Below, one piece after another: positions 46,580 through 52,896 of a stretch of 64,000 bases of DNA; positions within the stretch are counted from its first letter, which is position 1, and every line of letters starts with the position of its first letter. The stretch is from Escherichia coli. GTDB taxonomy: Bacteria > Pseudomonadota > Gammaproteobacteria > Enterobacterales > Enterobacteriaceae. The translations under genes and the position numbers were made by a program. The notes beneath the pieces are model-generated. The model was given only the letters and a program-made list of their open reading frames with translations. It was not told the origin of the DNA and did no database searches. The stretch lies in the NCBI RefSeq assembly GCF_044324785.1, contig NZ_CP172127.1. One strand, written 5' to 3'.

Positions 46580-48229
46580 TTACTGATTTTCCTCAATCAA
46601 CAACGCTTCAAGCAAATCGAGATCGTGCAGTAATTTTTGCAGCGTTTCGTTGCTGATCTCCCGCGTGGCGCGCAGGTGGTACAGTTCAGCACGTTCAGAA
46701 CGCAATGCCGCCAGACGGAAGCGACGCTCAAGGTTCTCTTCCTGCACGGAACTTTCAACGTCGTTACGTCCATCGGCGCGACGACGCAGGTTACCAATGA
46801 CGCGAGAACTGACCTCCGTGAGCAGCTGGTTATCGATATTCTCTTCGGTATCCGCCGCCAGACGCTCCTCCATTTTCTGGATCGCCACAATCGCCACTTC
46901 TGCCGTTGCCGCTCGCGCAATACGTTCCTCTTTCAATTGTTGCGAATGGTCCGCGACTTCAATGTGTTGTAGCAGAATAGGCAACATCACCACGCCGACA
47001 AACAGCGAGAAGAGAATGACACCAGCCGCCAGGAATACCAGCTCATAGCGCGCCGGGAAGACGTTACCATCCGGCAAGAGCAGCGGGATAGAGAGCACAC
47101 CGGCCAGTGTGATCGCCCCACGCACCCCGGCGAAAGACGCGATCAGGATTTCTCGTGTGGTCCACGAACCAAACTCCATCGGCTTCTTCTTCAGGAAGCG
47201 GTTGCTGAACTTTTTCATCGTCCACAGCCAGCCGAAACGGACCAGCATCAGCGCCGCATAAATCAGAATGATATCGGTAAACAGCATCCAGATTTCGACG
47301 TTAGGGTCGATTTCTGCCGCCATCAGCGACGTCTCCAGAATACCCGGCAGCTGCAGACCTAACAGCAGGAATACCATGCCGTTAAAGACAAATTCCAGCA
47401 TCGCCCAGGTGCTGTTTGCGCGCAGGCGCATTGCCAGCGGCGCACGGCGCATCACACCGGAGCGGGTGATGGTCATCCCGGCGGCAACCGCAGCGAGGAT
47501 GCCGGAAACGCCAATATGTTCGGCAATCAGATAAGAAGCGAATGGCAGCAAGAACAGTAGAACAATCTGCGTCGCAGGTTCATCACCGCCCCAGCGGCTG
47601 AGGAATCGCAGCGAGCGACCATACAGCCAGCTCACTACAAAACCGGCGAGAATACCGCCAATGGCCACTTTCATAAATTCGACCGTCGCACCGCCGACGG
47701 TGAAGATCATCGTCCCCATCGCCACTGCTACGGCAAACTTCAACGACACCAGGCCGGAGGCGTCATTCATCAACGCTTCACCCTGCAAAATGCCCATGAT
47801 TTTTTTCGGGATGCGCCCTTCGCCAACAATCCCCGAGAGCGCCACAGCATCGGTCGGAGAAAGCACCGCAGCCAGCGCAAAGGCGGGGATCAGCGGAATG
47901 CCCGGCACCACCCAGTAAATAAGGAAGCCAATGCCGACCACGGTGACCACCACCAGCGCCAGCGCAAGGCCGAAAATCTCTCGACCATGTTCGAGAAATT
48001 CACGGGTCGGCGTTTTCCAGCCATCAGCGAACAGCAACGGCGGGATAAACAAGACTAAAAAGAGTTCAGGATCAAACTCCACATGCAAACCAAACGTCGG
48101 CCACGCCAGTAGCGCACCGATGGCGATTTGCATAAGCGGAAGCGGGATCTGAAAGGGCATGACACGAGTGACCACCCCGGACAGCGAGACCACGAGGGTC
48201 ATTATCAGTATGGTGAAGAAGATTTCCAT
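46580..48229 (-). CDS. yjcE: Na+/H+ exchanger-family membrane protein YjcE (CPA1)
   Basis: 549 aa; multi-TM then charged coiled-coil C-terminal tail. Confidence 0.9.
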   Translation of the reverse strand: MEIFFTILIMTLVVSLSGVVTRVMPFQIPLPLMQIAIGALLAWPTFGLHVEFDPELFLVLFIPPLLFADGWKTPTREFLEHGREIFGLALALVVVTVVGIGFLIYWVVPGIPLIPAFALAAVLSPTDAVALSGIVGEGRIPKKIMGILQGEALMNDASGLVSLKFAVAVAMGTMIFTVGGATVEFMKVAIGGILAGFVVSWLYGRSLRFLSRWGGDEPATQIVLLFLLPFASYLIAEHIGVSGILAAVAAGMTITRSGVMRRAPLAMRLRANSTWAMLEFVFNGMVFLLLGLQLPGILETSLMAAEIDPNVEIWMLFTDIILIYAALMLVRFGWLWTMKKFSNRFLKKKPMEFGSWTTREILIASFAGVRGAITLAGVLSIPLLLPDGNVFPARYELVFLAAGVILFSLFVGVVMLPILLQHIEVADHSQQLKEERIARAATAEVAIVAIQKMEERLAADTEENIDNQLLTEVSSRVIGNLRRRADGRNDVESSVQEENLERRFRLAALRSERAELYHLRATREISNETLQKLLHDLDLLEALLIEENQ

Positions 48230-48379
48230 GCGTTCCCTGTTTGCGATGTTTTTTATGATCTGAGAAAGACGTTATGCCTGAATTCTCATTTTTTCAGAAT
48301 ATCGCAAAAGCTCACACAATGTGCGGAGAAAATAAAAACGGGCAGCCATTGCCACCCGTTTTCAGAATCATATGAAAGA

Positions 48380-49729
48380 TTAGATAGCCCAGCCACCCGC
48401 ATAGAAGGTCACCAGCGCCACAGCGATAACGACCGTACCGATGTTCAACTTGCGCCATTCGCCGGAAACCAGACGACCAATCACCAGAGTCGCGAAGCCG
48501 ATCATGATGCCTGTTACGATGTTACAGGTCAGCACGATGAATACCGCCGTAACCAGACCCGCCATCGCATCAACAAAATCAGCAAAGTCGATTTTCGCCA
48601 CGTTGCTCAGCATCAGCAGGCCAACGTACATCAGCGCCGGAGCCGTTGCATACCCCGGAACGAGGTAGGAGAGCGGAGAGAGGAACAGAATCAGCAGGAA
48701 CAGCACGCCAACGGTGATAGCCGTCAAACCGGTTTTACCGCCCGCCGCCGTACCTGCCGCAGACTCGATGTATACCGCTGCCGGAGCCGCACCCACCAGG
48801 CCAGAGAAAACGCTGCTCATGGAGTCAGTGGTCAGTGCCTTCCCGCCGTCGATAATTTGCCCATCTTTATCCAGCAGGTTCGCCTGGCCGGCGACGGCAC
48901 GGATAGTTCCGGTGGCATCAAATACTGCCGTCATCACCAGCGCCAGAACGCTTGGCAGGACTACAGGATTCAGCGCGCCCATAATATCCAGGCTGCCAAT
49001 CAGTGAATTGCCGTTTTCATCGCTCAATGAAGGCATGGCGAAAACACCGGAGAAATGGACGTTAGGATCGAAGATCAAACCGACAATTGAGATACCGATA
49101 ATGGTCAGCAGAATGCCACCAGGGACTTTCAGTTTTTCCAGGCCGATGATCGCCGCCAGACCTACCAGTGACATAATCACCGGGAAGGTCGCGAAATCAC
49201 CCAGCGCAACGGGCAGACCATCAAGCGGGTTTTTAATCACCAGACCGACACCATTCGCAGCAATCAGCAGCAGGAACAGACCGATACCGATCCCCGTGCC
49301 GTGCGCCACACCGTGCGGCAAGTTGCGCAAAATCCAGCTACGGATACCCGTGGCAGAAATGACCGTAAACAGCACACCCATCAGGAACACGGCACCCAGC
49401 GCGACAGGTACGCTAATATGTTGCCCCAGCACCAGACTGAATGCGGTAAACGCCGTCAGGGAGATGGCGCAACCAATCGCCAACGGCAGATTAGCCCACA
49501 GACCCATCACGATAGAACCGAGTCCGGCAACCAGACAGGTCGCAACGAAAACTGCCGCAGGCGGGAAGCCCGCTTTACCCAACATGCCTGGAACGACGAT
49601 AACCGAGTAGACCATCGCCAGAAACGTTGTTAACCCGGCAACCACTTCCTGACGGACAGTGCTTCCACGTTGTGAAATTTTAAACCAGGCGTCGAGTGAA
49701 CCGCCGGTACGCGCTGATGGCGTAGACAT
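48380..49729 (-). CDS. ghxP: Guanine/hypoxanthine permease GhxP (YjcD; NCS2/AzgA family)
   Basis: 449 aa multi-TM. Confidence 0.88.
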
Positions 49730-49789
49730 AAGAAAACATCCCCTGAGAGTTTAATTTTCGTCAAGATGCGTGGCGGACAATCCCCTGCC

Positions 49790-50010
49790 AGCGAAACGTT
49801 ATCTTCCTGCTCCAGGTTTGCGGCAATTTGGTGCGTCGCAAAAAAGCAAACGTTTAGCTCCGCGCATACAAAACGGGTGGTAAAAAAAGCAAACGATTAT
49901 CCGGCGATCATAGCGGCTTTTTCAACCGAAGTTTGCTGCTTTTTTCTCTTTTATTGTCTTGACGATGAAAAACCAGGCAATTGATGCGCAAACGTTATCG
50001 TCGATGCGCA
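49790..50010. promoter_or_regulatory. Cluster of PurR-operator-like motifs (GCAAACGTT) upstream of ghxP
   Basis: gcgaaacgttatc (about 49793), agcaaacgtttagc (about 49846), agcaaacgattatc (about 49889), gcgcaaacgttatcg (about 49989); compare PurR consensus ACGCAAACGTTTGCGT. Confidence 0.5.
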
Positions 50011-50254
50011 AGATTGCAGCGTTATCGAGCCGTATACCGTTCTGGATTGCGATAAAAAATCGTCTGAGATGACAAAAATATTGCGGCTAAAAAGTATACT
50101 TTTACACTGGCGAAGAAACGTCGGTGACATACAATTAAAGCATCAACACCAACCGGAACCTCCACCACGTGCTCGAATGAGGTGTGTTGACGTCGGGGGA
50201 AACCCTCCTGTGTACCAGCGGGATAGAGAGAAAGACAAAGACCGGAAAACAAAC

Positions 50255-50290
50255 TAAAGCGCCCTTGTGGCGCTTTAGTTTTGTGTTTGC
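50255..50290. terminator. Perfect 13-bp-stem hairpin with flanking T/A runs (bidirectional terminator-like)
   Basis: aaactaaagcgcc-cttgt-ggcgctttagttt; a partial second copy of the right arm occurs at 50418..50445. Confidence 0.6.
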
Positions 50291-50299
50291 GGATAATTC

Positions 50300-50445
50300 C
50301 AAAAGAGCTCGATCTGTCCCCTCGCCCCTTCGGGGAGAGGGTTAGGGTGAGGGGAACAGGCAGCACCAGTGCAAACATTTACCCTCACCCCGGCCCCATA
50401 GTTAACGATGAGTCAGCTTGTCCTTGTGGCGCTTTAGTTTTGTTC
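50300..50445 (+). ncRNA. sraL: Candidate small RNA SraL/RyjA in the ghxP-soxR spacer, overlapping the soxR 3' end antisense
   Basis: About 140-nt GC-rich segment with two strong hairpins, ending in ccttgtggcgctttagttttgtt; location matches my recollection of ryjA, whose sequence I cannot verify. Confidence 0.4.
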
Positions 50446-50898
50446 ATCTTCCAGCAAGCGTGCGCCTGTGCCTTCTTCTCCTAAGCGGTCGCCCGGGTTA
50501 CGCAATGGGCAATCACTGCGCGAAAGGCAGCCACAACCAATACATCCGTCCAGTTCGTCACGCAGCGCCACTAAGGTATGAATGCGCCGATCCAACTCTT
50601 CTCGCCATTGGGACGAAAGCTGTTTCCACTCTTTCGCACTTAATGTATGCCCTTCGGGCAACACGCCAAACGCTTCACGAATGGTCGCCAGCGGAATGCC
50701 AATGCGCTGAGCAATTTTGATGATTGCGACATATCGCAACACATCACGTTTATATCGCCGCTGATTGCCACTATTACGGATACTGCTAATCAACCCTTTG
50801 CTTTCATAGAAATGCAGCGCCGATACCGCCACACCGCTGCGTTTCGCCACTTCGCCGGGGGTTAGCAGCGCTTTAATGCGGGGTAATTTCTTTTCCAT
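50434..50898 (-). CDS. soxR: Redox-sensing MerR-family regulator SoxR ([2Fe-2S])
   Basis: 154 aa; MerR HTH and C-terminal Cys cluster [12 protein letters not shown]. Confidence 0.95.
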
Positions 50899-50908
50899 AA
50901 ATCGCTTT

Positions 50909-50936
50909 ACCTCAAGTTAACTTGAGGAATTATACT
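50909..50936 (+). promoter_or_regulatory. SoxR operator (palindrome) within the soxS promoter spacer, with -10 TATACT
   Basis: cctcaagttaacttgagg perfect palindrome between ttacc(-35-like) and tatact, about 50 bp upstream of soxS. Confidence 0.85.
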
Positions 50937-50983
50937 CCCCAACAGATGAATTAACGAACTGAACACTGAAAAGAGGCAGATTT

Positions 50984-51307
50984 ATGTCCCATCAGAAAAT
51001 TATTCAGGATCTTATCGCATGGATTGACGAGCATATTGACCAGCCGCTTAACATTGATGTCGTCGCAAAAAAATCAGGCTATTCAAAGTGGTACTTACAG
51101 CGGATGTTCCGCACGGTGACGCATCAGACACTAGGTGATTACATTCGCCAACGCCGCCTGTTACTGGCCGCCGTTGAGTTGCGCACCACCGAGCGTCCGA
51201 TTTTTGATATCGCAATGGACCTGGGTTATGTCTCGCAGCAGACCTTCTCCCGCGTTTTCCGTCGGCAGTTTGATCGCACACCCAGCGATTATCGCCACCG
51301 CCTGTAG
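50984..51307 (+). CDS. soxS: AraC-family superoxide-response activator SoxS
   Basis: 107 aa, MSHQKIIQDLIAWIDEHIDQPLNIDVVAKKSGYSKWYLQRMF... Confidence 0.95.
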   Translation: MSHQKIIQDLIAWIDEHIDQPLNIDVVAKKSGYSKWYLQRMFRTVTHQTLGDYIRQRRLLLAAVELRTTERPIFDIAMDLGYVSQQTFSRVFRRQFDRTPSDYRHRL

Positions 51308-51312
51308 TTTTA

Positions 51313-52896
51313 TTACCCGCGCGTTAACCCCCGCGCGGGTAATTGCTCCATCCATTGCATAAACACCTGCGGCGGCATCGCCTTCGCAAAGAACCATCCC
51401 TGACAATAGCGCACGCCGCGTTTGCGCAGCCAGTTAACCTGCTCCTCAGTTTCGACGCCTTCAGCGATCGTTTTTAACCCCAGACTGTGCGCCAGCTCGA
51501 TGATGTGTTCCGCAATCAAATGACTGGTTTTGTGGGTGGTCAGCGTCTCAACAAACGATTTATCGATTTTCAAAATATCGACATTCAATGATTTAAGGTT
51601 ATGCAAGTTAGAGTAGCCAATACCAAAATCATCAATTGCCACTTCGTAACCAGCCTGGCGGAAAGCCAGAATAATTGGTGTCATTTTGTCGACATCAAGA
51701 AATGCATGTTCAGTCACTTCAAATTTAATTTGCTGTGGACGCACCGCGTATTGCTCTGTTTTCTGATTGGTTCGCGCTATCAACCGTGACGTATGAAAAT
51801 CGGAGGCCGACAGGTTAATAGAAACATAGCGATCGGCATGTGTTGCCAGGTACGCGCCCAGATCGCGGAAGACATTATCAATAACATAATCAGTTACCTG
51901 TCCGATCATCCCCTCCTTTTCTGCCAGCGGAATAAACTCTGCCGGATTCATTACTTGCCCCTGCTCACCAGGCCAACGTAACAATGCTTCAGCTCCGATA
52001 CATTTTTCTGTTTTGATATCGATTATTGGCTGGTAATAAAGGCAAAGTTGATGTTTTTCGAGGGCGCGTTGCAATTTGCGTTTGGGAGACAAATAGTTTT
52101 GTCGAATACGTAGCCAGAGTAATAACAGAACAAGACTCCCCAAAATACCGGCGGGTAACGCAAAAATAAGATGATTATAAAAATGCGCTATAAGACGTTG
52201 ATATGAAGTCGCAACAATAGCTGCAATCGGGCGTTTTGTCGAATAAACTGTCGCATATAAATAGCCATTTCTTTGTACGATTAAATCATTCAAATGAATC
52301 AGCGGAGAAAACGTTGCTGCCGAGGCCTCGTTGCTTAACGAGAAAAAGGTTTTTGTCACCGTATCATACACACCCCATTGCAATGTCGGATCATCGGACA
52401 TCACTTCACTCCAGAAGAGAGGGTTGATAACCGCCACATAATTTCCCCGCTGCATATAGGTCATTTTATAGCCAGAGAAAAAAGGCGTATCGCGGTAATA
52501 ATAGATAGAAACGTTAGGTTCACGCTTATAATCGGCCGGTGCAATCGTATAGCCGTTTACAGGCGCTATCAGCGATGAGCATAAAAAATGGTTATCACGG
52601 GCATAGATCAATTCATTAATATAAAGATAGCCACGAATAATATTCAACATTCGCTTTTGATGGGCTGGAGTGCAAACTTGCCCCTGATAGCGTTCAGCAG
52701 CATCGCTCACTAAATCTGCCTGGCGAATGACCAGCTCGGATTTATCCAGTGCCAGTTGAGCAAAAGTTTGGAGCTGACTATTCACTTCTGATTTTGCCCA
52801 AAGGAAGGCAATCCATAGCGACAGAATGATGGGAAAGAGAACTAAAAAGATAATGCCCGGCAACGCCAGTAATTGGTGTCGTGCATGATGACTCAT
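51313..52896 (-). CDS. pdeC: Cyclic-di-GMP phosphodiesterase PdeC (YjcC; CSS-motif sensor plus EAL domain)
   Basis: 528 aa from ATG 52896; periplasmic CSS-type domain between two TMs, C-terminal EAL domain. Confidence 0.9.

Follow-up and report, generated by a model that had tools for sequence, protein, structure and literature searches.

The window analyzed here, a single 64,000-nucleotide stretch of Escherichia coli DNA, contains the pdeC-soxS-soxR-sraL-ghxP-yjcE region. The features of the interval between soxR and ghxP are collected in Table 1. Five positions in the 411 bp upstream of the ghxP ATG distinguish the window from K-12; none of them falls within the four 16-bp motifs considered below and two (49823, 49831) fall in the interval of the leader hairpin P2. 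A dispersed intergenic repeat of about 150 bp (50283-50433), with a median of five copies per E. coli genome, separates the sraL terminator from the soxR stop codon; in K-12, sraL and soxR overlap by 8 bp. A 751-bp query spanning this insert (window 49700-50450) was covered to at least 80% in 157 of 5,426 genomes, and the full insert was present in two. A second, sub-threshold Rfam match to sraL on the opposite strand (50250-50356, minus; 26 bits against a gathering score of 39) is probably just the palindromic sraL terminator hairpin with the adjacent repeat. Small open reading frames overlapping the motif region were rejected as not conserved, given the indels found in other genera.

Table 1. 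Features of the ghxP upstream region, in window coordinates. Motif numbers are those of the original prediction.
Feature	Position	Strand	Sequence, score or basis
ghxP (yjcD), guanine/hypoxanthine permease, coding sequence	48380..49729	minus	
ghxP Shine-Dalgarno sequence	49739..49744	minus	AGGGGA; read off the sequence; nearly invariant in the alignment
Fourth motif (motif 1) as a 16-bp box	49790..49805	minus	AAGATAACGTTTCGCT; 8.3 bits, rank 20
Predicted helix P1, 3' strand	49790..49799	minus	ACGUUUCGCU; inside motif 1
Predicted leader hairpin P2	49819..49840	minus	Directly after the downstream operator; covariation
Predicted downstream PurR operator (motif 2)	49844..49859	minus	AGCTAAACGTTTGCTT; 19.2 bits, rank 1 in 64 kb
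Predicted helix P1, 5' strand	49850..49859	minus	RNA copy of the downstream operator's left half; folding and covariation
Predicted core PurR operator (motif 3)	49887..49902	minus	GGATAATCGTTTGCTT; 11.8 bits, rank 7
Predicted -10 hexamer	49896..49901	minus	GATAAT; consensus scan and conservation
Predicted -35 hexamer, ghxP promoter	49920..49925	minus	TTGAAA; sole sigma-70-like site in 49650-50450
Phased A-tracts	49926..49955	minus	Between the upstream operator and the -35 hexamer
Predicted upstream PurR operator (motif 4)	49986..50001	minus	ACGATAACGTTTGCGC; 18.4 bits, rank 2 in 64 kb
Conserved flank	50004..50011	minus	TTGCGCAT; just 5' of the upstream operator; high information content, 77 stacked sequences
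sraL/ryjA sRNA	50142-50282	plus	
soxR	50434-50898	minus	

The original prediction placed four copies of GCAAACGTT upstream of ghxP. Its positions were right and its copy number was not: local copies of the exact 9-mer are limited to 49846-49854 and 49988-49996, the sequence at 49889-49897 (GCAAACGAT) differs by one mismatch, and that at 49791-49800 (GCGAAACGTT) gives no match even when one mismatch is allowed. Four exact copies per 64 kb would in any case be unremarkable, as at least four were found in three of 100 shuffles. The local density of the shorter hexamer GCAAAC/GTTTGC is far more unusual, with five occurrences in 49780-50010 versus 0.25 expected (Poisson P = 7e-6); no other 231-bp stretch in the window holds more than three. 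Two of these hexamers, at 49816 and 49931, are GCAAAC on the opposite strand, one within the 3' arm of P2 and one among the A-tracts upstream of the -35 hexamer. Neither has a central CG, and both were rejected as PurR boxes for that reason.

A PurR operator takes the form of a 16-bp imperfect palindrome, ACGnAAACGTTTGCnT, with a central CpG. Scores were obtained with a weight matrix built from the 27 other motifs of the ChIP-chip Table 1 (PMC3159470), the ghxP motif being left out; in leave-one-out scoring, these 27 motifs range from 8.8 to 24.5 bits (median 18.7), with the weakest ones at 8.8-12.8 bits. All four candidates are full 16-bp boxes with a central CG, rather than the half-site-like repeats first described, and all share one orientation with the better half (CGTTTGC) proximal to ghxP. 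Two of them, at 49844-49859 and 49986-50001, reach the level of the best known operators (p about 3e-7 per position, or 4e-7 for the latter). The score of the box at 49887-49902 lies in the low part of the range of the ChIP motifs, with 0.05 such matches expected per 704-bp intergenic region, while the box at 49790-49805 scores just below this range and would be met by chance 0.12-0.23 times per intergenic region. There is thus more than one credible palindrome, and the alternative that only one motif is genuine and the rest are chance matches fails.

A consensus scan found a single sigma-70-like site in the intergenic region, TTGAAA-N18-GATAAT, from which transcription of ghxP is predicted to start near 49890. 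Relative to this predicted start, the box centers lie at about -104 (upstream), -5 (core), and +38 (downstream), with the fourth motif at +92. In 77 sequences, GTTGAAAA and GATAAT are invariant and the sequence of the 18-bp spacer is not conserved, which is the signature of a real promoter. The promoter is also kept in Erwinia, Serratia, a Yersinia-like contig, Hafnia, Rahnella, Dickeya, Pectobacterium, and Edwardsiella, with a -35 hexamer of TTGAAA or TTGATT. The same scan revealed no second promoter at the upstream or downstream box, and inspection by eye of the sequence around TTGCGCAT and TGTTGC gave only unconvincing sigma-70 or sigma-54 elements and no evident promoter. Upstream of the -35 hexamer, runs of A are conserved at stack positions 48-51, 57-61, 67-69, and 79-82 (counted from 0 at window 50001, where the upstream operator begins). 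Their periodogram peaks near 11 bp, and four to five A-tracts run into the -35 hexamer in an alignment of 76 unique sequences; they likely confer intrinsic curvature or a UP-like function.

The core box overlaps both the -10 hexamer and position +1 of this predicted promoter. Its left half is the -10 hexamer itself, which accounts for the A that replaces the conserved G at box position 3. The remainder, CGTTTGC, comprises the center and right half of the box and is invariant in 78 of 80 Enterobacteriaceae species. CGTTTGC is lost only in Dickeya and Pectobacterium, both of which keep GATAAT; the promoter hence does not require the half-site, for which an operator is the best reading. With a score of just 11-14 bits and no conserved G at position 3, the site may owe part of its conservation to constraints on the promoter or the initial transcript.

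To assess conservation more widely, ghxP loci were collected from the genomes of 80 Enterobacteriaceae species at a protein identity of at least 90%. The upstream box is present in 79 of these species, the core box in 78, and the downstream box in all 80, so that the three conserved sites span about 30 genera. The core site has the consensus (G/A)GATAATCGTTTGCyT in 78 of the species and reaches 14.1 bits where its first base is A. At the 49790 position, on the other hand, a PurR-like score is confined to Escherichia (8.4-9.7 bits) and a few Citrobacter (about 7 bits); the homologous sequence in most genera, GAGATGACGTTTAGCT, scores about 0 bits. An array of PurR operators upstream of ghxP is therefore upheld, given two sites that score like the best known ones and a third conserved in 78 of 80 species, and the predicted array of four is reduced to three. 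Every lineage examined pairs the promoter-overlapping position with one or more strong boxes, but not always the same ones. For example, the core box is joined by the downstream one in Erwinia and Hafnia and by the upstream one, 99 bp away, in a bee-gut-like Enterobacteriaceae genome, and additional downstream boxes occur in Serratia, the Yersinia-like contig, and Edwardsiella. This pattern fits an auxiliary-operator role. In a metagenome scan for GATAATCGTTTGCC, seven of 120 loci were ghxP loci, including one new lineage, and the remainder were mostly chance matches.

Directly upstream of the distal box, a conserved block TGTTGC-N4-TTGCGCAT occupies 50004-50021. The GCGCAT of this flank recurs 20 bp away at the 3' end of the upstream operator, and ATGCGC is found just upstream of the +38 box. 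As a PurR box in its own right, the block was rejected because it has no central CG. A role of the upstream box in regulating sraL was likewise set aside: some 148 bp separate the box from the sraL start downstream of it, and the box is conserved in genera that have a GST-like gene instead of sraL as the upstream neighbor.

The fourth motif is better explained as the 3' strand of a leader RNA helix than as a conserved operator. Folding of the predicted leader pairs the transcript of the +38 box with this motif in a long-range, 10-bp helix, P1 (49859-49850 with 49799-49790), which is formed in 90% of alignment cells. At least nine of the ten pairs can form in 66 of 79 unique sequences, versus 2.8% of shuffled controls. 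Pair 3 covaries, being U-A in 30, C-G in 28, and U-G in 13 of the 79 unique sequences, and U-A in 13, C-G in 11, and U-G in seven of a set of 35; the covariation of P1 rests mainly on this one pair, and the sequences are related. The likeness of the motif to a PurR box arises from this pairing: a sequence complementary to one half of a near-palindrome looks like the palindrome itself. As an operator, 49790-49805 would be at best a weak, Escherichia-specific site. The adjacent hairpin P2 (49840-49834 with 49825-49819) has a CCCCU-like loop and shows changes on both sides in all seven of its pairs, a level of covariation reached in none of 500 shuffles. Taken together, the covariation in P1 and P2 indicates a transcribed, structured region downstream of 49859, and hence a start upstream of that position.

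P1 and P2 were tested as named helices, separately from searches of the leader as a whole. The whole-leader fold is no more stable than shuffled sequences (z = 0.83), and RNAalifold recovered from the leader only an invariant pairing of anti-Shine-Dalgarno and Shine-Dalgarno sequences, with no covariation. A search of Rfam over 48000-52000 with E values up to 1 returned only sraL and two sub-threshold matches elsewhere, leaving 49730-49890 empty. Within 49739-49859 there is a second conserved hairpin (the GUGGA/UCCAC region), whose UCCACC could pair with the Shine-Dalgarno sequence AGGGGA. The structured ghxP leader may serve as a translational or stability element.

The distances between the boxes are more constrained than the sequence that separates them. 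A distance of 99 bp separates the upstream from the core box in 78 of 80 loci, with 100 bp in the other two, and the intervening sequence, apart from the A-tracts with their phase of about 11 bp, is only moderately conserved. The distance from the core to the downstream box falls into classes of 44, 55, 89-90, 98-101, 114, 137, 145, 156, 167, and 205 bp, varying because different genera carry different inserts. These inserts, observed in several genera, are 45-160 bp long, differ in sequence, and occupy the first part of the ghxP leader between the two boxes. Many contain GC-rich palindromes, such as GCTCCCCC...GGGGGAGC in Klebsiella.

We examined whether the downstream spacings correspond to integral helical turns. 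Nothing was found at a period of 10.5 bp, and fits were obtained at 11.1 bp (p = 0.0014) and 11.2 bp (p = 0.0002). When periods from 9.5 to 12.5 bp were scanned against a jitter null, the corrected P was 0.003 for 14 spacing classes and 0.002 for eight conservative classes. The distances from operator to ATG, used as a control, showed no periodicity. Pairs of boxes in E. coli (88, 98, 32, 99, 43, and 99 bp) peak at 11.0 bp, with scan-corrected P values of 0.001-0.06 depending on the set. All of these spacing tests are post hoc, with small n and with some insert classes related to one another. For comparison, the in vivo helical repeat apparent from lac looping experiments is about 11 bp (PMC3001091).

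The view that one PurR site is usual and the array at ghxP unusual is borne out by both a scan of K-12 and the literature. In K-12, a second match of 8 bits or more within 300 bp is lacking from 18 of the 22 other ChIP-supported PurR regions; it is present at purR (+88 bp, 10.9 bits), xanP (+98 bp, 12.5 bits), adeP (+32 bp, 12.2 bits), and fabB, where it is probably due to chance. In addition, purA, for which Cho's table gives no motif, has boxes of 16.6 and 8.4 bits placed 99 bp apart in K-12. Among the 23 K-12 ChIP regions, ghxP alone has two boxes of about 18 bits or better together with a third (18.3, 11.1, and 18.7 bits). Annotated sites agree, with one for most PurR targets and two for purR and purA (PMC3505978). 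The secondary boxes of purA, xanP, purR, and adeP, at 99, 98, 88, and 32 bp from the primary ones, all lie near multiples of 11 bp, and three of the four encode either PurR or a purine transporter.

That PurR regulates ghxP has been published before (PMC3159470, PMC6892915), and both PurR occupancy of the region and purine-dependent repression of ghxP are taken here from the literature. By ChIP-chip, the ryjA/yjcD region (4275855-4276485) was enriched with a log2 value of 2.08 in the presence of adenine and was not enriched in its absence (PMC3159470). This region covers all the sites at a resolution of roughly 600 bp, which does not tell the boxes apart; the motif reported within it is ACGATAACGTTTGCGC, at 49986-50001 (PMC3159470 Table 1), and Sastry 2019 found the same motif at ghxP. 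Adenine represses the gene, a member of the PurR-1 iModulon (PMC6892915, PMC8376909), and PurR-dependent repression of yjcD is cited in PMC3809563. The supplement of PMC4576408 gives AGCTAAACGTTTGCTT at -130 for yjcD, matching RegPrecise, and AAGATAACGTTTCGCT at -76 as a 'novel' predicted site. Cho 2011, Sastry 2019, and RegPrecise/Elmas 2015 each give one or two boxes of ghxP, and their listed positions of -272, -130, and -76 correspond exactly to 49986-50001, 49844-49859, and 49790-49805. The -10-overlapping box, the joint architecture, the spacing, and the RNA helix appear in none of the sources found in a limited literature search. The promoter-overlapping operator, the three-operator layout, the dual use of the +38 box as DNA and RNA, and the spacing quantization of about 11 bp proposed here are therefore new, as incremental but testable additions.

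On the basis of these data, we consider it probable that ghxP is controlled by three real PurR operators arranged around one conserved sigma-70 promoter, the fourth motif being a strand of an RNA helix. The start site, the occupancy of each individual box, and any cooperation between sites are what we infer beyond the published binding and repression. In the proposed mechanism, the PurR-hypoxanthine complex would occupy the two strong flanking boxes (49986-50001, 49844-49859), which may recruit PurR so that the weak core box is kept occupied. As the core box shares its left half with the -10 hexamer, PurR-hypoxanthine bound there would exclude RNA polymerase. The +38 box may add a roadblock to transcription, and the -104 box may also stop read-through from the co-oriented upstream gene. 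The combined outcome would be a tight, purine-dependent shut-off of guanine and hypoxanthine uptake.

An alternative account would retain as operators only the two strong boxes, or only the one reported by ChIP, and attribute the conservation of 49887-49902 to its content of a -10 hexamer and initially transcribed sequence. The modest score of the core box, its absence from the sources found, and the fact that the promoter accounts for its GATAAT all lend this some weight. We nonetheless judge it unlikely: the CGTTTGC that follows the -10 hexamer is an exact match to the PurR center and right half, is as invariant as described above, and is dispensable for the promoter in Dickeya and Pectobacterium, and the score of the box lies inside the range of weak ChIP-supported motifs. 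Far more improbable still is that the boxes are bound by another LacI-family regulator, such as RbsR, or that they are a chance cluster or a duplication relic without function. Motifs 2 and 3 do share a 17-nt repeat with 94% identity, and motif 1 resembles the RbsR operator, GCGAAACGTTTCGC, beginning with AGCGAAACGTT, a perfect half of that box. This RbsR-like half is specific to Escherichia, however, and motif 1 was for this reason set aside as an RbsR half-site. The matrix is PurR-specific, the region is bound by PurR in vivo (PMC3159470), three sites are conserved over about 30 genera, and their clustering is far beyond chance.

The three operators may well be independent and additive, with the upstream box blocking read-through, the core box occluding the promoter, and the downstream box forming a roadblock, in which case PurR dimers would make no contact with one another and the spacing would be accidental; we give this slightly less than an even chance. 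PurR is a dimer without the tetramerization helix of LacI, and we know of no PurR dimer-dimer contact. Downstream PurR roadblocks are described for purB and purR and also count for independent action, as does the small, post hoc nature of the phasing tests. Furthermore, a chimera carrying the PurR regulatory domain showed no dependence on operator spacing in a looping assay (PMC3505978), which argues against dimer-dimer association. Against accidental spacing stand an upstream distance held at 99 bp across nearly all loci despite diverged sequence between the boxes, downstream classes that fit multiples of 11.2 bp (scan-corrected P about 0.003) while 10.5 bp and the ATG control are negative, and the E. 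coli pairs at purR, purA, xanP, and adeP (88, 99, 98, and 32 bp). These spacings make it conceivable, as a tentative proposal, that PurR acts at ghxP through cooperating, helically phased operators, in a GalR-like repressosome or loop that would bring the -104 and +38 boxes to the -10 box.

The predicted architecture shares elements with several known systems. Like ghxP, the purR and purA genes have more than one PurR box, combining a strong site with a weaker one; ghxP differs in having three conserved boxes, two of them strong, with one placed on the -10 hexamer and the strong ones standing on either side of the promoter. Elongation is blocked by PurR bound inside purB and purR (Cho 2011), and the +38 box of ghxP would similarly be an operator in a transcribed region, as it lies in the leader with RNA covariation downstream. 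Unlike the purB site, it accompanies a promoter-overlapping box, and its distance to the promoter looks helically phased. At ghxP, as in the GalR repressosome and lac O1/O2/O3, a weak or core operator at the promoter is accompanied by auxiliary ones both upstream and downstream. Spacings near multiples of about 11 bp between the operators are a further likeness to lac loops, and the upstream arm at ghxP has phased A-tracts. In contrast to gal and lac, no architectural-protein site was identified at ghxP, where looping is suggested by the spacing only.

PurR is the textbook example of a repressor that acts as one dimer on one operator, and its regulon serves as a benchmark for motif finders and network models. 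As the published boxes of ghxP show, pipelines that report one motif per peak under-describe regulatory architecture. The fourth motif illustrates that palindromic look-alikes in leaders can be RNA features, and an operator whose transcript forms one strand of a conserved leader helix would be a case of dual coding. If looping is true, the rule would extend to every target at which PurR has two sites (purR 88, purA 99, xanP 98, and ghxP 99 bp), and the natural inserts of the different genera would amount to an evolutionary spacing experiment in which phase has been preserved. The ghxP loci thereby offer a natural series of spacing variants for testing cooperation. Should the 11-bp quantization reflect real cooperation, looping-type control would reach a member of the LacI family that is thought not to oligomerize. 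For the organism, a weak operator fused to the -10 hexamer and supported by strong auxiliary operators would explain how a purine salvage transporter is tightly shut off when purines are plentiful.
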